A stretch of DNA of 13,456 bases from Pseudomonadota bacterium (GCA_043821645.1 JBDRCO010000067.1:1-13456), one strand, 5' to 3'; shown: positions 1 through 13,456, counted from the stretch's first letter. Program-made: numbers and translations. Notes: generated by a model from the sequence alone, not told the origin.

Positions 1-151
1 CGACGATGCGCATGCGATCGCGCTTGCCGAACACCTTCTTCAGTGCGCTCGGCTTGTTGCTGACCTTTCCCTCGCGCTGGATCTCGCGCTTCTCGTCGAC
101 GATACAGAAGTGACTCGACCTCTTGCCCATGTCCAGTCCACTAGAGTTCAC
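1..151 (-). CDS. IS110 family transposase (DEDD RuvC-like N-terminus), partial
   Basis: Not in the ORF track; translated by hand from GTG at 151: VNSSGLDMGKRSSHFCIVDEKREIQREGKVSNKPSALKKVFGKRDRMRIV. The GLD-x2-K and C-I-V-D pattern is typical of IS110 N-termini, and a good RBS lies 6 nt upstream. Confidence 0.9.
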   Translation of the reverse strand, partial: MNSSGLDMGKRSSHFCIVDEKREIQREGKVSNKPSALKKVFGKRDRMRIV

Positions 152-245
152 GGTCGGCTCCTTTCCGCTGTGCCTCGAGCACGCTGCTACGGGTCGTTCG
201 CACAACCACGATAGCGTCGGATCGGAGCCGGCCGCTTTACTCCAT
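1..245 (-). mobile_element. IS110-superfamily (IS1111-type) insertion sequence, left end and 5' part; runs off the window
   Basis: Minus strand reads TG|atggagTAAAGCGGCC (sub-terminal IR), about 95 nt of leader, RBS GGAAAGGAG, then the transposase start. Aligns without gaps to 1503-1748 (44 mismatches in 246 nt by hand count, ~82%). Confidence 0.9.
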
Positions 246-655
246 CAGGCACCTGTTTCGGGGTCCTCGATCGCGTCCTGGGCCTGTCCCCGGATTCGCA
301 GAGCTTCGGGCCTGGCATCGACGGCCCAGGACCATGTGCGACGGGGCTGCCTGGCTCGTTGTGCTCCTCGCGGTGTCTGGGCGAGAAGTCTTGACCCCGG
401 TGTCACGGCGCCGGGTCGAGGTGCAGGCCCGATACGAGGAGCCATCCTGTTTCTGGTCCTGTGACGATGTGTCCCCCCTGCTCCTAGCGCGTGTCTCCCG
501 CTCGCATTCGACGCAGACGCGCTCACAGCTCGTCTCCAGCTCGAGGCAGAACGGGCTCCACGCTGTCGGCGCTCAAGTGCTAGCCTCTGCACGGTACCGG
601 CCCAGTGCATCGGACGGCAAGGGCCAGCACCCCGCACCCGTCCTGAGGAGATCGC

Positions 656-1399: not shown

Positions 1400-1503
1400 C
1401 CCCAATTCAGGTTTGATTGTGCACGTCGCCACTGCCAACCCGGCGCAACCCAACTGTTGTTCAAGCACTAGCAGCCCTCTACAGGTGCTCCAACAGCTGG
1501 CTG

Positions 1504-1881
1504 ATGAAGAAAAGCGGCCGGCTCCGATCTGGCGCTGTCGTGGTTGTAGGAACAGCCCGCGGCAGCGTGCTCGAGGCACAGCGGAGAGGAGCCAACCGAG
1601 AACTCTTGTGGACTGGACCGGGGAAAAAGGTCGAGTCACACCGGTATCGCGTACGAGAAGAGCGAGATCCAGCGCGAGGGAACTGTCAGCAACAATCCCG
1701 ACGCGGTGACGAAGGTCTTTGGCTGGCTCGATCGCATGTGCAATCTCGTCGAGGCCAGCACCAGTTCGTTTTGGATGGCAGACCAGCTTGAGGCACTGGG
1801 GCACGAGCCCTTCGTGGAGGACCCACAGCGATAGCCCAGGCGAGGTCAGGCAGTGCTGGACCTGGCAGGCCGCATTATCGA
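1504..1881 (+). mobile_element. internally deleted, non-autonomous IS110/IS1111 derivative (378 bp)
   Basis: 1503-1748 is ~82% identical to the reverse complement of 1-246. 1824-1861 matches 13419-13456 at 34/38 nt. Sub-terminal IRs are AAAAGCGGCC (1510-1519) and GGCCGCATTA (1868-1877). TG flanks both sides (1502-1503, 1882-1883). Confidence 0.85.
1598..1834 (+). pseudogene. degenerate IS110 transposase 5' fragment
   Basis: Start GTG is mutated to GAG. Reads ENSCGLDRGKRSSHTGIAYEKSEIQREG...LVEASTSSFWMADQLEALGHEPFVEDPQR*, including the first D (GLD) and the E (EAS) of the DEDD motif; fused to right-end DNA at about 1824. Confidence 0.85.
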
Positions 1882-1986
1882 TGTCAGCTGTTTTTTTTGG
1901 GGGGCTGGCTTGGCCTTCAAGACCGCGCTGGCGAAAAGCCGCGGACCTTGTCATTCACCACGTCGGGGGTGGAGGGCTGACAGCGA

Positions 1987-3856: not shown

Positions 3857-3895
3857 GGTGCCAGCCACCTGTGCCGGGGCCACCTGTGCCGGGGC
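3857..3895 (+). repeat. short repeat motif GGTGCCAGCCACC followed by a perfect 15-bp tandem duplication
   Basis: GGTGCCAGCCA matches the 5' motif of the dispersed repeat; GCCACCTGTGCCGGG occurs at 3864-3878 and 3879-3893. Confidence 0.75.
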
Positions 3896-4458: not shown

Positions 4459-4517
4459 GATAACACAGCATAAGTTCGCGCCGAGGTCGTCGGCGGGAGG
4501 CGGTAACCCCCCAATCA

Positions 4518-4571
4518 GGTGCCAGCCAAATACCTATTCAGTAATACTAAGTATTTACAGAAGGCTCTGCC
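4518..4571 (+). repeat. dispersed repeat family, copy C
   Basis: GGTGCCAGCCAAATACCTattcagtaatactAAGTATTTacaGAAGGCTCTG, colinear with copies B and D. Confidence 0.9.
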
Positions 4572-4706
4572 GCAAGTTACCGCAATAACTAGTAAATTTA
4601 TTCGACCACGGCATGCCCGTACGGGCTGTGCACTGGTTGTTCATACTATTTGTATGTGTTACGAACTCTCATCGAAAATTGAGCAGCTACTCGTTTGATG
4701 GAGCGC

Positions 4707-4721
4707 TGGGCGAAGCCTTGC
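4707..4721 (+). promoter_or_regulatory. possible sigma54 (-24/-12) promoter for the lipoprotein operon
   Basis: TGG-gcgaagcc-TTGC has GG-N10-GC spacing about 35 nt upstream of ATG 4757, downstream of an AT-rich stretch. The CACG part of the consensus is absent. Confidence 0.25.
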
Positions 4722-4756
4722 GGATTGCGCAACGCTCCTCCGAAAGGTTCTTGCCC

Positions 4757-7420
4757 ATGAAACCTCGCATTTACCTCTCGGCCTTCATCCTCACTCCGTT
4801 TCTACTCCTGGGATTCGGAGGCTGCTCCTGCGGTGGACCGACCGAGGAAGACGGCGGCAGCTCCTCCAAGTCCGACTCAGGACCGGACGACGACGCAACC
4901 ACCGCCACGGACGCCAGCCCTCAACTGGACTCGGCCACGGACCCGGACTCGGCCACGGGCCCGGACTCGGCCACGGGCCCGGACACGGCCACGGGCCCGG
5001 ACACGGCATCGAACCCGGACGCGGCCATCGACGAGGACGGCAGCACCTCGCCCGATGCCGCCCCGACCTGTCTCGCCACCTGCGTGGTCTACGTGGACAA
5101 CAGCGTGGCCACCCCTGGCGACGGCCTCACCCCGGCCACGGCGCTGCACGATGTCCAGACCGGCATCGACGCGGCCATTGCCCTGGCCCCCGATCCCTGT
5201 ACCTGCGAGGTGCGGGTGGCCATGGGCACCTACAACGTCCTGGTCAACGACGCCGAGGACACCATCCTGCTGGCACCGCGGGTGCAGCTCAACGGCGGGT
5301 TTGACAACGGCTTTGCCGGTGCAGCGGATCCAAACCAGTTCGAGACCATCCTGGATGGCCGCTCCTTTGGCGCCGGCTCCGATGATGCCGGGTTCGAGGA
5401 CGTCGGGTCCGAGGACGGTGGCACGGAGGCCACCAGAGTGTTCCACGTCGTCACCGGCGCCGAAAACGCGGGCATCGACGGCTTCACCATCACCGGTGGC
5501 AGCGCGGTCGACGACGCCGACCCGCAAAACCCCAACAACTACGGCGGTGGCATGTACAGCGCGGGCGTCTCACCCAGCATCACCCGCTGCACCTTTGTCG
5601 GCAATACCGCCGTGTGGGGCGGCGGCATGTACAACGGAGCCAATGTCTCGGAGGTCACCCACTGCGCCTTTTACGACAACGCCGCGACCGAGGGCGGTGG
5701 CGGCGTGGCCAACCGCGGCTCGCAGGCGGTCTTCACCGACTGCGCGTTCGAGGGCAACACGGCCGTTTCTGGCGGCGCCGTGTTCAACGGGGCGTCGAGC
5801 GCACCCGAGTTCGGGCAGACCGGCGCGGACCTGGGCCTCATCCGGCTCAACAGCGCCGAGTACGGCGGCGGCATGCACAACGAGGCCGGCGCCTTCCCCA
5901 CCATCACCGACGTCAGGTTCGTGAGCAACACCGCGTCCCACTCGGGCGGCGGCATGCACAACGTGGAGGACGCCAGCCCGATCCTGACCGGCGTGGTCTT
6001 CGCCAGCAACACGGCCACCCACTCCGGCGGCGGCATGTACAACAACGCCGCGGCCCCGGTGATGAGCGCCACCCTGTTCAGCGCCAACTCGGCGGAGAAC
6101 GGCGGGGGCCTCTACAACGACTCCGTGGCCGACCTGGTGCTGAGTGCGGTGGTCGTGGCCAACAACACCACCACGAGCCACGGCGCAGGTCTGTTCAACA
6201 CGGGCACCACGCTCGAGCTGTTCGAGTGCGATGTCGACGCCAACGTGGCCATGGGCAACGGTGGCGGCGTCTACAACGTGAGCGGCACCGCGATCATCGT
6301 CACCAGCGGGACGGTGCAGCACAACGCGGCGGTCAACGGCGGAGGCGTGCTCATCGGCGGGGGCACCTCCATGACCAGCGCCAGCGCCACCTACAGCCAC
6401 AACACCAGCACAAATCAAACCCCCGCCGTCGACGGCGGGGGCGGCGCCATCCGCAACCACGGCACCCTCACCATGTACGGAGACCTGATCGCCGACAACA
6501 GGGCCTACATGCTCGGAGCCGGTGTGTACAACGGGGACGCGACCGCCACCCTCACCGATGTCAGGTTTGTCGACAACAGCGCACACGATGGCGTCACCGG
6601 ACATGGAGGTTACGGCGGCGGCATGTACAACAAGAAGGGCCACGTCACCGTCACCAACAGCCTGTTCCACAGCAATCAGTCCGATCTCCAGGGAGGCGCC
6701 ATCAGGAGCTCGTACGACCGGACCGAGCCAGAGGTGGTGACGCTGGTCGTCGAGGACTGCATCTTCACGGACAACGAATCCAACCGCGGTGGAGCGATCG
6801 CGACGGATACCAGCACTCCCACGATCCGCGATTCGATATTCAACGGCAATCTGGGCTACGCCGGCGGCGGCGCCCTGTTCATCGCCGGGTTTGACTACTC
6901 GACCTTTGAGAACTGCATGTTCGTCAACAATTTTGCCCCGGAAGGAGGAGCGGTCCAGCTCTGGAGCGGCTACTACAACCCGACCTTTGTCAACTGCACC
7001 TTCTACTCCAACGAGGGCACGAGCGCCGGCGGGGTCTTCCACTACGTGGTCGAGAACCCTGTGTATCATCCCTACTCGGACCTCACCGTGATCAACTCCA
7101 TCCTCTGGGGTAACAGGTCTCCCTCGTCGGACGTGATGAGGAGGCAGATCCATAAGGGGAGCACAGAGGTCAGCTCCATCACCTACAGCGATGTGCAGGG
7201 AGGGTGCACCACGGCCAACGGCTGCACCACCGACCAGACCGGCAACCGCAATCAGGATCCCCTGCTTTTGCCGGTCGGCAGCGACGGCGTCTATGAGCTG
7301 GGGCCGAACTCGCCGTGCCTCAACGTGGGCAACGACGGCGCCATGGACACCCCCACCGATCTGCTCGGCAACCCGCGCAAGAACGGCGTCGTGGACCTGG
7401 GCGCGGTCGAGAGGCAGTAA
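4757..7420 (+). CDS. lipoprotein with right-handed beta-helix (chlamydial Pmp-like GG[A/G] + FxxN repeats) and C-terminal choice-of-anchor-Q-like segment, 887 aa
   Basis: Start reassigned to ATG 4757 (RBS GAAAGG; MKPRIYLSAFILTPFLLLGFGGC lipobox). N-cap VYVD..GDG..TA..VQ..ID..VAMGTY, many F-x2-N-x-A-x2-GGG(M/V/L)YN repeats, and C-terminal LGPNSPCLNVG..TDLLGNPR..VDLGAVE. Confidence 0.88.
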   Translation: MKPRIYLSAFILTPFLLLGFGGCSCGGPTEEDGGSSSKSDSGPDDDATTATDASPQLDSATDPDSATGPDSATGPDTATGPDTASNPDAAIDEDGSTSPDAAPTCLATCVVYVDNSVATPGDGLTPATALHDVQTGIDAAIALAPDPCTCEVRVAMGTYNVLVNDAEDTILLAPRVQLNGGFDNGFAGAADPNQFETILDGRSFGAGSDDAGFEDVGSEDGGTEATRVFHVVTGAENAGIDGFTITGGSAVDDADPQNPNNYGGGMYSAGVSPSITRCTFVGNTAVWGGGMYNGANVSEVTHCAFYDNAATEGGGGVANRGSQAVFTDCAFEGNTAVSGGAVFNGASSAPEFGQTGADLGLIRLNSAEYGGGMHNEAGAFPTITDVRFVSNTASHSGGGMHNVEDASPILTGVVFASNTATHSGGGMYNNAAAPVMSATLFSANSAENGGGLYNDSVADLVLSAVVVANNTTTSHGAGLFNTGTTLELFECDVDANVAMGNGGGVYNVSGTAIIVTSGTVQHNAAVNGGGVLIGGGTSMTSASATYSHNTSTNQTPAVDGGGGAIRNHGTLTMYGDLIADNRAYMLGAGVYNGDATATLTDVRFVDNSAHDGVTGHGGYGGGMYNKKGHVTVTNSLFHSNQSDLQGGAIRSSYDRTEPEVVTLVVEDCIFTDNESNRGGAIATDTSTPTIRDSIFNGNLGYAGGGALFIAGFDYSTFENCMFVNNFAPEGGAVQLWSGYYNPTFVNCTFYSNEGTSAGGVFHYVVENPVYHPYSDLTVINSILWGNRSPSSDVMRRQIHKGSTEVSSITYSDVQGGCTTANGCTTDQTGNRNQDPLLLPVGSDGVYELGPNSPCLNVGNDGAMDTPTDLLGNPRKNGVVDLGAVERQ
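4927..5026 (+). repeat. intragenic 18-bp tandem repeat (~5.5 units, PD[S/T]ATG linker)
   Basis: GGAC(T/A)CGGCCACGG(G/A)CCC units start at 4927, 4945, 4963 and 4981, with degenerate units at 4999 and 5017. Confidence 0.92.
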
Positions 7421-7432
7421 GGAGCATCCATC

Positions 7433-10400
7433 ATGAAGACCAAACACCGGTTTTCGACGCTTTTCCTCGCCCTGCCCCTGCTGGTGGGCGGCTGCCCCGA
7501 TCCCGACACCGGCGAGGATGGAGGCTCCAAGCCGAAAAACGACGCTGCCACCGGCGCGGATCACACGGGCGTGGATCACACGGGCGCGGATCACACCGGC
7601 GAGGATGTGGACATCGAGATCACGGGCTACACCTGCGTCAAGGATCTCGACCTGCTCGCCGAGCACCGGGCCTGCAGCCTCGACGTGCACTGCCCCTGCG
7701 GGTCCCACTGCAGCGCGGGTCTGTGCGTGCACGAGTGCCTCGAGCACAGCGACTGCGACGGCTGGTGCGATTTCTTCGGCCGCTGCCGCGGCGCCGCCGA
7801 CACGATGTCCATCCATCCGGTGACTGGCGAGCTGCGCGGCAGGCTGCAGCTCAAGACCGCCCACCTCACGCTCATGGACGTCTCCGAGGTGCGCGAGGTG
7901 GAGCTGAGCGCGGTCCACCAGGCGCTTTCAGACGTCCGCGTGGTGGCCAGCGAGGGGTTGCTGGTCAGGTGCGCGAGTGAGTTCGTCAGGGAGTGTCTCC
8001 TGCCCTCGGTCGCGGCCGACGGGCAGAGGGTCACGGTCTCGGTGAAGCCCGAGGCGACCAGCACGAGAGACGAGTGGCATGTGAGCTTCCACCACGACGA
8101 CCAGGTGGAGAGTGTGCACATTACCAAGATCATGCCACCGAGCGCCCATTTCCCGCAGCCCGGTGTCTACGTAGGCCAGATCTGGTTGAGCAGCGCGGAA
8201 GCCCTGCTGCAGGGCAACGACCCCTATGTGCGGGCGCCGCTGGCATCGGGGTTCAGCATGCTCAACCTGCCGCTGCAGCTGAAGGTGTACAGCGACGGCA
8301 CCGTGGCCTTCACGGATCTCTTCAAGGACACCATCGAGGACCACGCGGGCATCCTCCCTGAGCACCTGGTGTTCACGCTGCGCGCCAACGGCACGTTCGA
8401 CGCCATCAGCGAGGAGGTGGATCGCTCTCCCCAGGTCTACCTCGGCGGAGCCACCGCGGTCGACGACGAGGCCGCGGTCGAGGTGGTGATCTCGGCGCAC
8501 GGCGAGATGCGCTCCGTCGACGACGGCGTCTCCGGAACCCTGGGAGTGCGGATGGGCGGCTTCGGCCCGCTGTACGACCCGACCCTGGCCATCGACGAGC
8601 GGCTCAAGGTGTCGTGGGGCTTCACGGCAACGCGGACCGGCGACATCCAGGCCGGTGACAACCCGCCCCCGCTGGGCGGCGGCCAGGCGCCGGTCTTCGG
8701 TGAGTACGCGGACCGCGTCGACCACGCGGCGCCGTGGGAGGCCGAGATCGAGAACTCCGGGGCCGGCAACCTGGGCGGCGCGGACCAGGCTGAGGCAGTG
8801 CAGCGCTGGCTCTGTTACAGCCACCCCTCTGACTTCACGTCGGTATCGCTATCCATCAACACCGCTGACCTGACCGCGATGCAAGACCTCAAGTGCGACG
8901 ATGTGGACCTCAGGCCCACGGTCTTCCCCCTGTTTACCAACCTGGATCGCACTGTGTCCCTGACGACCCAGCAGGCCCTGGGGGGGTGCATGGAGGAGCT
9001 CGCCTTCGTGGCCAGCGATCCACCCAGCACGATGCAGACCGGGGCAGCCCTGCTCGACGCCATGTCCGGCTGTGGAGAGACCAACGGCTGCAACGACGCG
9101 AACGAGATGCCCACCTGCATCGACGGGCCGCTGGCGCTGTACAGCGCGGTCCTGGGCATGGAATCCATCGCACCCCGCGCCGATCGGCTCTACTGGACGG
9201 TCGCGTCCGATCTCGGCGCCAAGCTGGGGCTCAGGGCCCTGCAGCAGTGGATCCAGACCCACACCTTTGTAGTCCGCGAAACGGCGCAGGGCGTGGATCG
9301 TCTCCTGGGCGGCAACCCCAACGATCTGGAGACCGCCCTCGACACCGGCCTCAACGGCTGGGACCTGATGCTGCACCCCAAGGTGGGGGCGCGCCTGCTG
9401 CACGTCCCGCCGGCGCTGCTGGCCGAGCCCGACTACCGCGACGTCGTCACCCTGCCCGAAGCCATGAACCGCGACAACACCCAGCCCGTGGGCCTGCCGG
9501 TGGTCATGTTGGACGGCCTCACCGCCCAGCTCGAGGCGGCCTCGCGGCTGATCGTCCAGGCGCGGTACCAGTCCGGGTCCTCGCTGCCCAGCCAGGTGGC
9601 GCGCTCCCTGCGCTACGCGTCGATCCTGGCCCCCATCGCCCAGATGCTGCACACCCGGGCCACCGAGCACGGCCAGCTGGCGTGGGAGGAGCTGTGGGTC
9701 GCGTCCCAGGACGACTTCGCCGAGGAGCTGGGCCGGGTGATGCGCGAGTGGCGCGCCTACCTGACCGGGGAGAACCCGCTCGGCATCGACGACGAGGACC
9801 TGCCCCTGTACCGCGGCCTGATCAATCCCGACGCGGCTGGCATGCGCTTCTCGGCCATCTCCAGCTACCTGATCGAGAACTGGGCCACGGACGCCGTGGC
9901 CACAGCCCGCGACGCCAAGACCGCGGCCGACACTGCCTGGACCGCCCTGCTCGAGCGCCAGCTGCAGATGGCGGCCCAGGACCAGGGCGAGGACAGGGCA
10001 GAGGCGATCCAGCGCCAGTACGGCGAGAAGATCCTCAACATGTGCGGCAACCCGCTGGGGCTGGTCGACGCCAAGGATGTCTTCGATCCGGGCCGATGGG
10101 TGGGTCAGAACTCCCAGAACTGCTTCCTCAACCAGGCCAACCCGAGCTGCGTCTACGACGAGCAGGCCATCGCCGACGCCCTGACCGCCGACGACGTCAT
10201 GTACCACATGTGCGTGGTGGCCGAGCTGAACAATCGCCTGGGCGACAAAGCCCAGCTCTCCGACGCGGAGCTCAACGCCCAGATCCGTGAGATGCAGGAC
10301 GTGCTCGGCAACCTCCAGCAGCCGGAATCCGTGGACTGGTGGTTGGGGGTCTTCGACCCCGGGTTGGTGGAGATCGCGATCGACCTGGCCAACCAGATCA

Positions 10401-12166
10401 GGGACCCCGAGGGCGGCCGCGGAATGACCGACCTGTGGACCCTTGACCGCTTCTCGTACTCTGGGATCGAGGACGAGCGGGCGTTCTTCAATGCCAGGCA
10501 GGAGTGCGGCTCGCTGTTGCCCAACGGCGGCTTCGTGACCGACAAGTTGGAGCCGATCGACCACCCCGATTGCTACCAGGGCGCCTTGGGCGAGCTTGTG
10601 CTGGCGGCGCGCGCCGCGCGCAAGGACATCGAGGTCGCCTCCAGCGAGATCCAGGACCTCACCGACGCTTACGAGAACGCCGTGCACCAATGCATCATCA
10701 TCGACGAGGGGATCGAGTTCTCCGAACATGTCTCGGCGCAGCTGGGCGCGATCTCGGGCAAATTGGAAACCTATCTGGGGGGAGTTCAGTTTGCATGCGA
10801 TGTGAGCAGCGTGACGATGGGAGGTATCTTGTCGGCCGCGAGCACCGCGCTGGCCATGCCGGACAGCGGTTTGGCGTCCGTCTTCGACTTCGTCTCCGGC
10901 AAGACCCTGGAGTCCATGTCAAACGCGATGGGGCTCGGGGAAGTCCAGCAACTTCACGCCGACTTCCTGGCCGAGCACCAGCGGGAGATCGCCAACACCC
11001 TGTGCTTCAACGACGCCGAGATGCACCTGGTCAGCGCCGACACCCAGACCAAGCGGCTCGAGCGCGCCAAGATCGATCTGGCCCAGGCTGTCCTCAAGCT
11101 GCGCAACGGGCAGCAGGAGCTCAGGCGCCTGATCATCGAGGGCCGCAACCGCTCCAAGGCCGAGGCCGGCCGCGCCCGGGCGTCGCTGTTCAACGACATC
11201 TGGAGCGACCTGTGGGCCGGCGACCGGGCCACCTTCGAGGGCAAGGTCGAGGACTACCGCGAGGCCATGCGCATCGCCCAGCGCATCATGTACCTGACCG
11301 TGCGCGCCGTGGAGTACGAGTGGCAGGTGACCCGGCAGGACAGGGCCGACGTGCTCGCCGCCACCACGCCCGACGACCTGGCCGCGGTGCTGCTGCAGTT
11401 GAAGACCGATGTGGGCACCGGCAACATCGGCGGCCAGAGCCCGGAGAACCTGCACGTGGTGCTGCGCCTGCGCGACCACCTGCTGCAGCTGGAGGACCGC
11501 TCGGAGTGGCCCGCGGGGCAGCACACCATGTCCGATGTCCAGCGCTTCCAGGCCCTGCTCACCTCGGAGCGGTTTGCCGAGTACGGCGACGACGGGAGTT
11601 ACGCTGGGCAGCGGATACCATTCTCCCTGGCGCCGCTCGGGATCATCGAGCTGGGCGATCCCGGGTCGATCCCGGTGCTCACCGGCTCGGACTGCGCTGA
11701 GCGACTCTGGTCTGTCAACGCCTCCATCCTCGGGGACGAGATCTCCAGCGGTGAGTCGACCTACACCAGGATCGACCTGCGCCACAGCAACACCTTCTAT
11801 AGCCAGTGGTGTCACCGACCGGCCGCCGACGAGCCGCCCTTCCTGAGCGCCTCGACCCGGCCATCGCGCAACCTGTTCAAGGATCCGATCTGGGGCGGCG
11901 GTTACGGCAGCAACAACAACGACGAGAGCGAGTACGTGCGCGCCCGCATCCAGGCCTATTTCAACGTCGCGACCGGCGAGATGGAGCAGGAGAGCTACTC
12001 GCAGGGGTCGTCCGAGGAGCTGGCCTGCCGGGCGCTGTACGGCGAATACGCCCTGTTCTTCCCGGCCGAGTACCTGGACATCAACGGCAGCGGCGGCCTG
12101 CGCCTGCACAACGTCGAGGACATCCTGCTCAGGTTCGACTACGTCTCCGCGGCCAAGCACTACTGA
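7433..12166 (+). CDS. large Cys-rich lipoprotein (1577 aa) with coiled-coil C-terminal half, putatively Tc toxin A-subunit-like
   Basis: RBS TAAGGAG overlaps the upstream stop. MKTKHRFSTLFLALPLLVGGC lipobox; Cys-rich block CSLDVHCPCGSHCSAGLCVHECLEHSDCDGWCDFFGRC; long helical region; C-terminus RALYGEYALFF...LHNVEDILLRFDYVS. The gene is well supported, but the TcA-like assignment is inference. Confidence 0.8.
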   Translation: MKTKHRFSTLFLALPLLVGGCPDPDTGEDGGSKPKNDAATGADHTGVDHTGADHTGEDVDIEITGYTCVKDLDLLAEHRACSLDVHCPCGSHCSAGLCVHECLEHSDCDGWCDFFGRCRGAADTMSIHPVTGELRGRLQLKTAHLTLMDVSEVREVELSAVHQALSDVRVVASEGLLVRCASEFVRECLLPSVAADGQRVTVSVKPEATSTRDEWHVSFHHDDQVESVHITKIMPPSAHFPQPGVYVGQIWLSSAEALLQGNDPYVRAPLASGFSMLNLPLQLKVYSDGTVAFTDLFKDTIEDHAGILPEHLVFTLRANGTFDAISEEVDRSPQVYLGGATAVDDEAAVEVVISAHGEMRSVDDGVSGTLGVRMGGFGPLYDPTLAIDERLKVSWGFTATRTGDIQAGDNPPPLGGGQAPVFGEYADRVDHAAPWEAEIENSGAGNLGGADQAEAVQRWLCYSHPSDFTSVSLSINTADLTAMQDLKCDDVDLRPTVFPLFTNLDRTVSLTTQQALGGCMEELAFVASDPPSTMQTGAALLDAMSGCGETNGCNDANEMPTCIDGPLALYSAVLGMESIAPRADRLYWTVASDLGAKLGLRALQQWIQTHTFVVRETAQGVDRLLGGNPNDLETALDTGLNGWDLMLHPKVGARLLHVPPALLAEPDYRDVVTLPEAMNRDNTQPVGLPVVMLDGLTAQLEAASRLIVQARYQSGSSLPSQVARSLRYASILAPIAQMLHTRATEHGQLAWEELWVASQDDFAEELGRVMREWRAYLTGENPLGIDDEDLPLYRGLINPDAAGMRFSAISSYLIENWATDAVATARDAKTAADTAWTALLERQLQMAAQDQGEDRAEAIQRQYGEKILNMCGNPLGLVDAKDVFDPGRWVGQNSQNCFLNQANPSCVYDEQAIADALTADDVMYHMCVVAELNNRLGDKAQLSDAELNAQIREMQDVLGNLQQPESVDWWLGVFDPGLVEIAIDLANQIRDPEGGRGMTDLWTLDRFSYSGIEDERAFFNARQECGSLLPNGGFVTDKLEPIDHPDCYQGALGELVLAARAARKDIEVASSEIQDLTDAYENAVHQCIIIDEGIEFSEHVSAQLGAISGKLETYLGGVQFACDVSSVTMGGILSAASTALAMPDSGLASVFDFVSGKTLESMSNAMGLGEVQQLHADFLAEHQREIANTLCFNDAEMHLVSADTQTKRLERAKIDLAQAVLKLRNGQQELRRLIIEGRNRSKAEAGRARASLFNDIWSDLWAGDRATFEGKVEDYREAMRIAQRIMYLTVRAVEYEWQVTRQDRADVLAATTPDDLAAVLLQLKTDVGTGNIGGQSPENLHVVLRLRDHLLQLEDRSEWPAGQHTMSDVQRFQALLTSERFAEYGDDGSYAGQRIPFSLAPLGIIELGDPGSIPVLTGSDCAERLWSVNASILGDEISSGESTYTRIDLRHSNTFYSQWCHRPAADEPPFLSASTRPSRNLFKDPIWGGGYGSNNNDESEYVRARIQAYFNVATGEMEQESYSQGSSEELACRALYGEYALFFPAEYLDINGSGGLRLHNVEDILLRFDYVSAAKHY
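7550..7606 (+). repeat. intragenic 15-bp tandem repeat (TG[A/V]DH x3 plus partial unit)
   Basis: AC(C/G)GGCG(C/T)GGATCAC at 7550, 7565 and 7580; partial unit at 7595. Confidence 0.9.
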
Positions 12167-12195: not shown

Positions 12196-12289
12196 GCCCC
12201 AGGGTGGGTGCCAGCCAAATACCTATCCAATAACACCAGGTACTTACGGAAGGCTCTGTCCCCTGCTCTACTGCTCTCTCTGCTCTCTC
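12196..12289 (+). repeat. dispersed repeat family, full copy D plus CTGCTCT micro-duplications
   Basis: GCCCCAGGGTGGGTGCCAGCCAAATACCT...GGAAGGCTCTGTCCCCTGCTCTA-CTGCTCTCT-CTGCTCTCT fills most of the gap between two convergent stop codons. Confidence 0.92.
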
Positions 12290-13049
12290 AGTCCTGACTG
12301 GCGCTCCAGGCTCCTTCGCCCATGCACCCGGTCGGGAAGGTCGAGTTGCCGCACCAGCTCCCATTGCTGAAGCTGGTGCCGGAGCGCGTGCCTCTCAGGG
12401 CCACCTTGAACGCCATGCCCAGGCTGCCGCACTGGAATCCTGCATCCACCGGAGCGCCGTCCTCGGCCGCCCCTGCGTCCTCGCTGGGCACGCTGAAGCA
12501 CAAGTAGGCCGGGTCAACGATCATCTCGATCTGGCTGGTCAGCGCATCGAAGCTGCCGACGATCTGCCCCTCGAAGGGATAGCCTCCCTGGGCCACACCG
12601 CGCATCACTCCGCTCACCCACAGCTTGTCGCCGGCACAGCCGATCTCGAAGATCATGGCGCCGGAACTCGTCATGTCGAAGGGTCCGGTGAAGATCGTGT
12701 CGCCGAACACCCGGCCCTGCCAGTAACCCGAGAAGCTGCCCGTGAGGTCCGCCAACTCGTCGGGACAGGTCGCACCACCCGCGTCCTCATCGACGGTGTG
12801 GGGTGGGATGTCGGGGTAGGTGCAGACGAAGCCGGCGTCACCGGCGTCATCCAGCGCATCGCCGGCACTGGCATCGGCAACCAGGCTGTCGGGGCTGACA
12901 CTGCGATCGCCGATGACGCGATCGCTCACAGCCCCGTCGCGGATCTCCGCGCCATCGGGCGAGGTCGGCTCGAGACCGCACTGGCAGCTCGCGCCAGCAG
13001 CGAGCAGACCGACCAGACAGATATTCACCAGAGCACGCGGCACGGCCAT
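12288..13049 (-). CDS. hypothetical Cys-containing lipoprotein, 253 aa
   Basis: Start reassigned to ATG 13049: MAVPRALVNICLVGLLAAGASC(QC) lipobox, DAG-rich linker, then a beta-rich Gly/aromatic domain. The upstream ORF extension overlaps IS DNA. Confidence 0.78.
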   Translation of the reverse strand: MAVPRALVNICLVGLLAAGASCQCGLEPTSPDGAEIRDGAVSDRVIGDRSVSPDSLVADASAGDALDDAGDAGFVCTYPDIPPHTVDEDAGGATCPDELADLTGSFSGYWQGRVFGDTIFTGPFDMTSSGAMIFEIGCAGDKLWVSGVMRGVAQGGYPFEGQIVGSFDALTSQIEMIVDPAYLCFSVPSEDAGAAEDGAPVDAGFQCGSLGMAFKVALRGTRSGTSFSNGSWCGNSTFPTGCMGEGAWSASQD

Positions 13050-13094
13050 CCCGATATTATGTCCATCCCTGGCCGGGGCGGAAACAGAGAAAGA

Positions 13095-13110
13095 GAAGGC
13101 TCTGTCCCCT
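13095..13110 (+). repeat. dispersed repeat family, isolated 3' motif (copy E)
   Basis: GAAGGCTCTGTCCCCT, a 16/16 match to copies B and D. Confidence 0.8.
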
Positions 13111-13123
13111 CCTCTTTTCAGGG

Positions 13124-13456
13124 GGAAGCGCGAGCAGGCGTTCGAGCCCATGCACGTCAAGGCGTGACGACGGAGATTGCAGGTCACCGCGGAGCCCAAG
13201 GTGAGCCGTCGGAGGTCATCAAGAGGGTGGAGTGCGGCAGGTGCCATGGCGGGGCAACCGTGCCGATTGGGTGATGGCACCCACCCTTCGAATACCATTC
13301 TGTGCCCGGGCATCCAGGCCCGACCAAGAGCACGTATCGATGGCTGAGGAGACGCTCTCGACGACGACACCGGGGATCCGCTGAACAAGTTTGGAGGTCA
13401 GGCCGGGGAGACACAGAACACAACGATAGCCCGGGCGAGGTCAGGCTGTGCTTGAC
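13124..13456 (+). mobile_element. IS110/IS1111 3' remnant: last transposase codons plus long downstream non-coding end
   Basis: KREQAFEPMHVKA* (stop 13165-13167) resembles the IS110 C-terminal W-x4/5-F-x-P tail. 13419-13456 matches the right end of the 1504-1881 element (34/38). Ends in TTGAC, an outward-facing -35 box. Confidence 0.75.
13223..13345 (+). ncRNA. candidate bridge RNA / seekRNA (target- and donor-binding loops)
   Basis: Stem GAGGGTGG/CCACCCTT encloses an internal loop and a GCAA-tetraloop hairpin; a second domain has a CGGGC/GCCCG hairpin. Loops contain matches to the inferred target (CAGGTGCCA) and donor junction (TATCGATG). Boundaries are approximate. Confidence 0.6.

Follow-up and report, generated by a model that had tools for sequence, protein, structure and literature searches.

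Sequence context of the locus

The window, i.e. the whole stretch of 13,456 nucleotides (nt) analysed here (JBDRCO010000067.1), is contig C67 of a Myxococcota assembly (GCA_043821645.1) of 7.07 Mb in 140 contigs with 67% G+C. Its end, 13124-13456, is a 5'-truncated copy, that is the 3' part, of an insertion sequence (IS) of the IS1111 group of the IS110 family. The same region recurs on about ten other contigs of this genome with 78–100% identity, mostly at contig ends. Homology to intact copies begins abruptly at 13124, 14 codons ahead of the transposase stop, and the DNA upstream of this point is unrelated to the element and holds a minus-strand lipoprotein-like gene (12288-13050). Inspection of open reading frames (ORFs) and alignments found no transposase and no left end belonging to this copy in the DNA upstream of it. 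About 310 nt of non-coding DNA lie between the stop and the right end, a layout shared by the relatives L015-L019, L022 and L041, and the sister copies on contigs C122 and C109 carry the same sequence directly after their transposase stop codon. The right end of the window copy is located about 22 nt past the contig end: C84:1-129 is 100% identical to 13328-13456 and then continues to a right end and its flank (...TATCGATG|GAACCTTTTT), while 13419-13456 matches 1824-1861. That the contig ends here is due to the repeated IS family present at this locus.

A first-pass annotation had flagged 13223-13345 as a candidate guide RNA located downstream of an IS1111-type transposase frame, with a target-binding domain followed by a donor-binding domain. 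Our analysis agrees with this placement. The flagged segment contains both guide loops in that order, and on the comparative evidence given below 13195-13352 is the predicted bridge RNA (seekRNA) gene of the IS1111-group element. The features are listed in Table 1.

Table 1. Features of the truncated copy, its putative bridge RNA and the two other copies in the window
Feature	Position	Strand	Remarks
Second copy, at window start	1-247	-	left end, 5' leader and first ~43 codons; runs off window start
Internally deleted copy	1502-1883	+	core TG 1502-1503, left end from 1504, ~78 N-terminal codons, last ~57 nt
Transposase 3' remnant	13124-13167	+	last 14 codons (..FEPMHVKA), stop TGA 13165-13167; from alignment with C109, C122 and C82a
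5' hairpin P1	13200-13220	+	GGTGA 13200-13204 pairs with TCATC 13216-13220
Outer stem of target-binding loop, 5' arm	13223-13235	+	GAGGGTGGAGTGC; RNAalifold
Right-target guide (5' strand of target loop)	13236-13246	+	GGCAGGTGCCA; complement of core TG and right flank GCACCTG
Inner stem and variable apical part	13247-13265	+	TGGC 13247-13250 with GCCG 13262-13265
Left-target guide strand (3' strand of target loop)	13266-13276	+	ATTGGGTGATG; TTGGG 13267-13271, core TG 13272-13273, AT 13274-13275
Outer stem, 3' arm	13277-13289	+	GCACCCACCCTTC; contains GCAC 13277-13280
Donor loop, 5' strand	13290-13300	+	GAATACCATTC; CCATTC 13295-13300 complementary to left end (TG)ATGG
Donor-binding hairpin	13301-13334	+	TGTGCC-CGGGC...GCCCG...GAGCACG
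Donor loop, 3' strand	13335-13344	+	TATCGATGGC; right-end guide TATCGA, core TG, handshake-like GC
Conserved tail and spacer	13345-13456	+	TGAGGAGA up to 13352; TTGAC motif starts 13448-13456; right end ..GGCCGCTTTATCGATG beyond contig

Conserved structure of the putative bridge RNA

A first alignment of 12 copies, six belonging to this genome and six to Myxococcota assemblies reached through the transposase, gave an RNAalifold consensus and a covariance model named R1. Of 151 genomes sampled from the phylum, 3 match R1, this genome included, which adds two further copies, while the samples of the family (2 genomes), order (2) and class (4) contained no match outside this genome. A degenerate-pattern scan of metagenomes returned at least 118 stretches; among the 80 loci listed, six match R1 at E <= 0.001 and the other 74 were dropped as chance pattern matches. 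The copies found with R1 in this genome, other Myxococcota genomes and metagenomes were assembled into a 21-copy alignment, A4, from which the partial copy L078 (43.3 bits) was excluded. One relative, L033 (G096:C7:248755-251914, 75.9 bits), is a solo bridge-RNA region with a right end. Rfam gave no match at gathering score and, at E up to 10, only two chance-level matches (E = 4.9 and 8.2). A blastn search of a plasmid collection with 13124-13456 found nothing.

The copies form a sequence family in which the secondary structure covaries. In A4, 97.0% of 607 cells form standard pairs, a percentage inflated by the fitting of A4 to the model structure; the compensatory changes are the better evidence, both sides being changed in 11 of 29 pairs. 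The observed values were not reached by any of 500 shuffles, and slid controls pair at 34–42%. Helices 2–6, the stems closing the two internal loops, are 96–100% paired with 10 of 22 pairs changed on both sides. This holds for the outer stem of the target-binding loop (helices 2 and 3; 96–100% of cells paired, three pairs changed on both sides), for the inner stem (helix 4; 97.6% paired, with pair 61/94 being GC in 12 copies, AU in 6 and UA in 1) and for the donor hairpin (helices 5 and 6; 99–100% paired), where each of the five pairs of helix 6 is changed on both sides in at least one copy. Within the outer stem, GCAC (13277-13280) is paired to GTGC (13232-13235) in every one of the 21 copies, irrespective of the target, a single pair being variable (UA in 19, CG in 1, UG in 1). 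The arm-to-arm 5' hairpin P1 forms in local folds of 12 of the 14 distinct versions, the exceptions being those of C122 and C82b, and its arms differ in sequence (GAUGAC/GUCAUC, AAUAAC/GUUAUU, GGAGAC/GUCUUC). RNAalifold also proposed a long-range helix between GGTCATC (13214-13220) and GATGGCT (13339-13345), which would bury a donor guide. This helix has the least support of all (91.8% paired, the changes being mostly one-sided), and GGTCATC is better accounted for by the local 5' hairpin.

Open frames of 90–366 codons overlap 13124-13456, and the region could in principle be protein-coding, through the minus-strand ORFs 12288-13388 or 13184-13456 or the plus-strand ORF 12798-13274. We give this a very low probability. 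At 67% G+C long chance frames are common, and the lipoprotein-like gene has a plausible ATG at 13050 with a signal-peptide-like start (by inspection). Moreover, the homology starts abruptly at 13124 and follows the transposase stop, and the conservation tracks RNA pairs, with apical-loop insertions of variable length.

Target guides covary with the flanking DNA

In the first loop, the last two bases of the 5' strand are CA, complementary to the core TG, and the bases preceding this CA are the complement of the right flank. Among 13 representative loci, Watson-Crick pairs with the flank are formed at 67 of 91 guide positions and only 6 of 100,000 guide-flank permutations are as good; many loci share the GCACC target (cross-pair mean of 3.6/7) and the sequences are related, so that such p-values overstate independence. 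Distinct targets are met by distinct guides: TTTGGACA faces the core and right flank TG|TCCAAA in L016, GTTCGCCA faces TG|GCGAAC in L033, GGGGTCA faces TG|ACCCC in L017, GGGTGCCA faces TG|GCACCC in L015, and GTCCTTCCT faces AG|GAAGGAC in L034. For the window copy only the right guide is comparable, and it fits the GCACCT flanks of the sister copies. The string that the first-pass annotation had singled out as a target guide, CAGGTGCCA (13238-13246), lies inside this covarying strand. On its own, the occurrence of this string in the window is a weak test (two occurrences versus 0.22 expected, a number reached by 6 of 200 shuffles).

The 3' strand of the target loop follows the pattern N, five bases, core, two bases, N. 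Four relatives have their left flank within the contig, and in 4 of 4 the five bases reproduce that flank, with 18 of 20 positions identical; among 24 permutations, one does equally well. Guide and flank are GTCAC and GTCAC in L018, GTCTC and GTCTC in L019, AGTGC and AGTAC in L016, and GAGGC and GAGGA in L041. L018 and L019 are near-identical elements, and their A/T difference is found in both guide and flank. The L015 guide, GTGTC, equals the left side of an empty target copy located just downstream (by inspection), and the left ends of L022, L074 and C82b were not found at the expected distance. Several left guides coexist in this genome: TTGGG in the window copy and C105a, TTGTG in C105b, C25, C54 and C82a, GTGTC in C122, and GTGGC in C82b, where TA replaces the core. 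The two bases following the core are AT or GT, and AG in L034, and match the left-end AT if G:T is allowed; the window copy has AT (13274-13275), the same two bases with which the left end begins. At the level of the family, the loop strands are complementary to both target strands and vary with the target.

This leads to a correction of the second target segment. GGTGATGGCAC (13270-13280) had been taken for the other target strand, with one gap. Its likeness to the target is structural, because the GCAC/GTGC stem is kept regardless of the target, and the actual guide is TTGGG-TG at 13267-13273. Nor does the self-complementarity of the two target segments stem from a palindromic target, as was supposed, since TTGGG-TG does not match the palindromic GTGCC-TG. 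The GCAC of 13270-13280 is thus a conserved stem, and the annotation had itself named base-paired stems kept regardless of the target as an outcome that would speak against it. On such a rival reading, all matching segments would be mere stems of a structured 3' untranslated region or of another small RNA deprived of guide function. The long-range helix and the absence of an Rfam match would also fit such a role. However, that helix is the weakest of the structure, and 13236-13246 and 13266-13276 are unpaired in the consensus and change among relatives together with their flanks. This guide-flank covariation has already largely refuted the idea of stems only, to which we assign a very small probability.

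Donor guides, core and handshake-like bases

The 5' strand of the donor loop is single-stranded. In place of CCATTC, other copies read CCATCC; by inspection, L016 has CCATCA with TGATGG, and L018 and L019 have ACCUUUUCA with TGATGGGGT through G:U pairs. CCAT (13295-13298), already proposed as the complement of the left end, is thus part of a segment (13295-13300) that sits where relatives carry their left-end complement. This is the weakest of the four guides, and the core T is mismatched in the copies of this genome. The 3' strand is more constant: in its right-end part 4–6 of 6 positions are identical to the right end, and both core bases agree, in 16 of 16 loci. Its last two bases agree with the two that open the right flank at 28 of 32 positions (722 of 100,000 permutations are as good), and the extensions GC, TC and AC have each been seen with a matching flank. 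The whole strand TATCGATGGC occurs once in the window versus 0.01 expected. The match of TATCGATG (13335-13342) to the right end plus core at 1876-1883, noticed in the first pass, is therefore correct and is extended at 13335-13344 by two flank bases that covary with the flank. Both donor strands are complementary to the element's own ends, TATCGATG to the right end and core and CCAT(C/T)C to the left-end ATGG. In L034, which has the core AG, three guide strands change with the core.

Every string quoted in the first-pass annotation was found where it had been located. Three of its four guide segments were correctly placed and one, 13270-13280, was misassigned. The check that it had proposed, a covariance model combined with guide-target covariation, gave stems that compensate and guides that follow the flanks.

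By analogy with ISEc11 and IS621, the intact element would be excised as a circle, and a DEDD/serine recombinase loaded with the RNA would insert this circle at NNNNN-TG-(G/A)CACCT. In the target loop, the 5' strand would pair with the top strand of the core and right target, and the 3' strand with the bottom strand of the left target and core. In the donor domain, the 5' strand would pair with the left end and the 3' strand with the bottom strand of the right end and core. Each 3' strand would run two bases past the core into the sequence of the post-insertion partner, so that pairing may rise upon insertion. We infer that the RNA is made, that it binds the recombinase and that strand exchange proceeds in this manner.

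The element family and its ends

The C122 fragment (P0001, 259 amino acids) matches PF02371 at 3e-22 and the NCBIfam entry NF033542, 'IS110 family RNA-guided transposase', with 191.6 bits versus a cut-off of 140. The GLxPxxxxSG motif of the DEDD (RuvC-like) plus Transposase_20 recombinases is present in it as GLVPSLYASG. A recombinase of this kind is thus recognizable in sister copies and not in the window copy, where 14 codons are left.

The element has subterminal inverted repeats (TAAAGCGGCC/GGCCGCTTTA) and TG at both junctions. Its left end reads flank-TG-ATGGAGT-AAAGCGGCC..., with a 7-nt extension, ATGGAGT, and its right end reads ...GGCCGCTTT-ATCGA-TG-flank in C122, C82a, C25, C105b, C84 and C71. 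A right-end pattern search allowing four mismatches was far too permissive and was used for known copies only. There is no target duplication: every resolved end has the form flank-TG-IS-TG-flank, and the empty site C112:365 and the occupied paralogous site C112:8303 differ by the element only. The subterminal repeats, the 7-nt extension, the shared TG and the ~310-nt downstream non-coding region together make up the arrangement that Siddiquee et al. (PMC11187229) and Durrant et al. (PMC11208160) describe for the IS1111 group.

Two further copies lie in the window. On its own strand, the copy at the window start reads flank CAGGTGCC (reverse complement of 248-255), the core TG (reverse complement of 246-247), then ATGGAGTAAAGCGGCC; the flank-core-end sequence CAGGTGCC-TG-ATGG reported earlier (reverse complement of 241-255) is confirmed. 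The internally deleted copy has flanks CAGCTGGC|TG and TG|TCAGCTG and a right end TATCGATG at 1876-1883, and lacks the bridge RNA region.

In this genome the family is decaying. None of the contigs of the assembly carries a complete transposase gene: the C122 gene begins at residue ~79 at the contig start, that of C109 is truncated at residue ~78 and frameshifted, and C82a has 40 transposase codons left. C82b and the copy at 1504-1883 of the window have internal deletions, the truncation of C54 and C105a resembles that of the window copy, and relics with only a left end exist (1504-1883 of the window, C3 and C112). The searches used the RNA region as query and hence favour RNA-bearing fragments. 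Every copy in the genome is broken by contig ends, and left ends cannot be tied to bridge-RNA copies. The window copy and C54 share their cut point, directly 3' of GGTCGATGT of intact copies, and C105a is cut 17 nt further on. GGTCGATGT resembles the right-end terminus, and the left neighbours of the shared cut resemble the right-flank target sequence. A guided partial excision is not claimed as the origin of these solo copies, their junctions having no TG core.

Other features of the ends were seen by the way. TTGAC(A) is conserved about 17 nt before GATGAT in right ends (C122:1068-1095, L015-L022, L033 and L041; by inspection). TTGAC(A)...GATGAT is a candidate junction promoter of the circular form, in which GATGAT would arise only when the ends join. 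At C82:5514-5790 (minus strand), an N-terminal transposase fragment in which the initial ~65 nt of the element are missing directly abuts a target that looks empty, ..TCGGG-TG-GCACCTTTCCCGGGGG. At C3:62365-62425, a 16-nt left-end remnant, ATGGAGTAAAGCGGCT, has a copy of GG(A/G)TAGGTGGC-TG on either side, and GCACCTTTCC follows; judged by its sequence, it looks like a footprint or an abortive event at a target site.

Target sites in the genome

The C122 guide GTGTC pairs with GTGCC through one G:U, which makes the palindromic site AGGTGCC-TG-GCACCT the target of the C122 type. Empty sites of this sequence are present in C112 (two), C12 and C109. The guide TTGTG fits TCGTG|TG, again through one G:U, a site that is empty at C112:365 and carries a left-end remnant at C112:8303. 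The right half of this site, ACACCTTTTC, is the right flank of C105b and C25. TTGGG would fit TCGGG-TG-GCACCTTTCC, for which empty sites exist in C77 and C82. Such sites are no commoner than in a reversed-genome control (15 versus 11), and the wobble-tolerant patterns for the other guide types are not enriched over it (14 versus 15, 14 versus 11 and 13 versus 13). Only NNNNN-TG-RCACCTTT is, with 35 occurrences versus 6 in the reversed genome, a count that includes occupied sites.

The targets are short repeats starting with GGCAC and ending with GGGG, often in tandem and often with an empty copy beside an occupied one. Tandem units were seen at C112:19600-19660 (GCACCTTTCCGGGG) and, as units of 17–30 nt, in the right flanks of L015, L019, L041 and L066. 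In the window, 3857-3869 (minus strand) is an empty target-like site, ACAGGTGGC-TG-GCACCTTCCCTG, identical to the palindromic insertion site except for one change. Two copies of an A+T-rich motif, GGTGCCAGCCAAATACCTAT(T/C)CA.TAA.AC, start with the target-like GGTGCCA: one at 4516-4550, just upstream of a 935-codon ORF (4613-7420), and one at 12207-12240, just downstream of a 1577-codon ORF (7433-12166). Close to the truncated copy, the direct repeat GAAGGCTCTGTCCCCT (12245-12262 and 13095-13112) flanks the lipoprotein-like gene, its second copy being part of a terminator-like hairpin on the minus strand.

Relic or active copy

The locus most likely corresponds to an IS1111-type bridge RNA (seekRNA) gene retained, with its guide loops intact, in a transposase-less copy that is a decaying relic. 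The first-pass annotation had assumed an intact element. Having lost its left end and transposase, the window copy cannot move, and we think it likely that it is a relic. Such solo copies are found elsewhere: G096 (94% complete, 10 contigs) has a solo copy with a right end and no match to an IS110-family transposase, and in the complete genome G117 a copy lies beside only the last ~62 transposase codons. The junction at 12900-13166 is spanned with 0 differences by a contig of X1, which is probably the source sample, while the DNA runs X2 and X3 contain contigs with intact coding sequence ahead of 13124.

Several observations weigh against our interpretation or narrow its support, besides the inflated pairing percentage and the overstated p-values mentioned above. 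In terms of minimum energy, the window copy folds no more stably than shuffled sequences do (z = -0.51). Its own flanks are unavailable, with the left end absent and the right end off the contig, and its TTGGG does not match the left flank GTGCC|TG of three left ends (C5, C66 and window 245). The right guide of C82b, a deleted and diverged copy, fits the flank at 1 of 7 positions only. Sites for the predicted target, wobble allowed, are not enriched (15 versus 11 in the reversed-genome control). The orphan junction is confirmed in X1 only, 13090-13108 not being bridged by X2 or X3. Finally, the four runs provided no RNA evidence: the RNA library X20 yielded two contigs of a relative that cover 13301-13353 only and cannot show transcription.

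The same RNA gene could instead be alive, i.e. transcribed and acting in trans with a transposase from another copy. Family members would then be sent to TYGGG-TG-GCACCT, and the genome would hold a small repertoire of guides. The window copy scores 166.9 bits against R1, compared with 164.5–171.7 bits for the other near-identical copies of the genome, and all its stems are intact. The four different left guides in one genome and the empty TCGGG-TG-GCACCTTTCC sites in C77 and C82 would also be consistent with activity. In addition, C105a carries CAGCTGCCA, which fits the right flank TCAGCTG of the 1504-1883 copy at 6/7 positions versus 5/7 for the usual guide (by inspection), and the ISEc11 non-coding region is described as functional when supplied in trans (PMC11187229). 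However, no promoter-like site was found for the window copy, and the upstream gene is on the opposite strand, which makes read-through unlikely. The lack of RNA evidence, the number of matching sites, which does not exceed the reversed-genome control, and the absence of a complete transposase gene in the assembly also argue against activity, and the G096 solo copy indicates that such copies persist as relics. We therefore regard an active gene as unlikely, at a probability well below that of the relic.

A bolder proposal, which we consider improbable and less likely than a merely active gene, is that transposase-less bridge-RNA modules with diversified left guides are kept, transcribed and loaded onto a transposase made elsewhere, the cuts being guided partial excisions. 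If it were true, a trans-acting guide repertoire would spread insertions over several (G/A)CACCT repeat classes, and the recurrent cut 3' of GGTCGATGT would be the trace of an excision in which the transposase part was lost and the guide module stayed behind. The decaying relic remains our preferred explanation for the copy at 13124-13456.

Relation to known guide RNAs and significance

The seekRNAs of ISEc11, ISPa11, ISKpn4 and ISPst6, as described by Siddiquee et al. in 2024 (PMC11187229), are the closest known systems. There too the RNA is encoded in a long non-coding region downstream of the transposase gene, the segment that matches the top strand by complementarity precedes its bottom-strand counterpart, an order opposite to that of IS110 types, and the two target matches overlap at the insertion point. 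According to the same report, IS1111 elements have subterminal inverted repeats, a 7-nt left extension (here ATGGAGT) and no target duplication, and the conserved span of ~160 nt found here is close to that of the 'long' seekRNAs (151–172 nt). As for the novelty claimed in the first pass, what is new is a family member; IS1111 seekRNAs that target palindromes had already been described, since ISPa11 uses a repeated palindromic element as target (PMC11187229). The present family differs from the ISEc11-type elements, to which it is likened by description, in its Myxococcota host, its core TG, its targets of the form NNNNN-TG-(G/A)CACCT and a window copy that has lost the transposase. Co-purification of the seekRNA and its requirement for transposition were established for ISEc11-type elements (PMC11187229), whereas the RNA reported here is known from sequence.

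The bridge RNA of IS621 (Durrant et al. 2024, PMC11208160; Hiraizumi et al. 2024, PMC11208158; PMC13626964) likewise has a target and a donor internal loop, each with one top-strand and one bottom-strand guide around a shared core dinucleotide, and a 5' stem-loop. Its two-base extensions, the handshake guides, match the partner DNA after exchange and are placed in such a way that insertion raises the amount of pairing (PMC11208158, PMC13626964). It differs from the present RNA in being located at the 5' end of the element rather than at the 3' end, in the strand order within the loops, which is reversed here, in its core (CT versus TG) and in the structural and biochemical data available for it. 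The handshake-like bases found here are on the guides pairing with the bottom strand, to the right of the core, which is the mirror image of IS621 and is what reading the element on the other strand would be expected to give.

A third comparison concerns ISPpu9 and solo ssr9 of Pseudomonas putida KT2440 (PMC12288879). ISPpu9 is also an IS110-family element that targets repeated palindromes, and its 3' small-RNA module also occurs alone, without a transposase, elsewhere in the genome. In contrast to the RNA considered here, Ssr9 is reported not to be a guide and not to be needed for transposition, and solo ssr9 units are bounded by A'/B' boxes and move as circles (PMC12288879). The solo copies of the present family, unlike ssr9, lack both a left-end-like boundary and a TG at the junction, and look like deletion products.

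The locus itself is ordinary: it is a relic of a decaying IS family, with a bridge RNA of an already known type. What the family offers is a natural series of reprogrammed guides, with at least seven right-flank sequences, the cores TG and AG, and matched left guides. It supplies a ready set of covariation data on a bridge RNA of the IS1111 type in Myxococcota, a phylum outside the systems tested in the cited literature. In that literature, leaving aside supplements that possibly cover handshakes or covariance models, we found no statement of a mirrored handshake in the IS1111 group. The covariation of the two-base extensions suggests that the handshake principle of IS621 may also hold, mirrored, in the IS1111 group.

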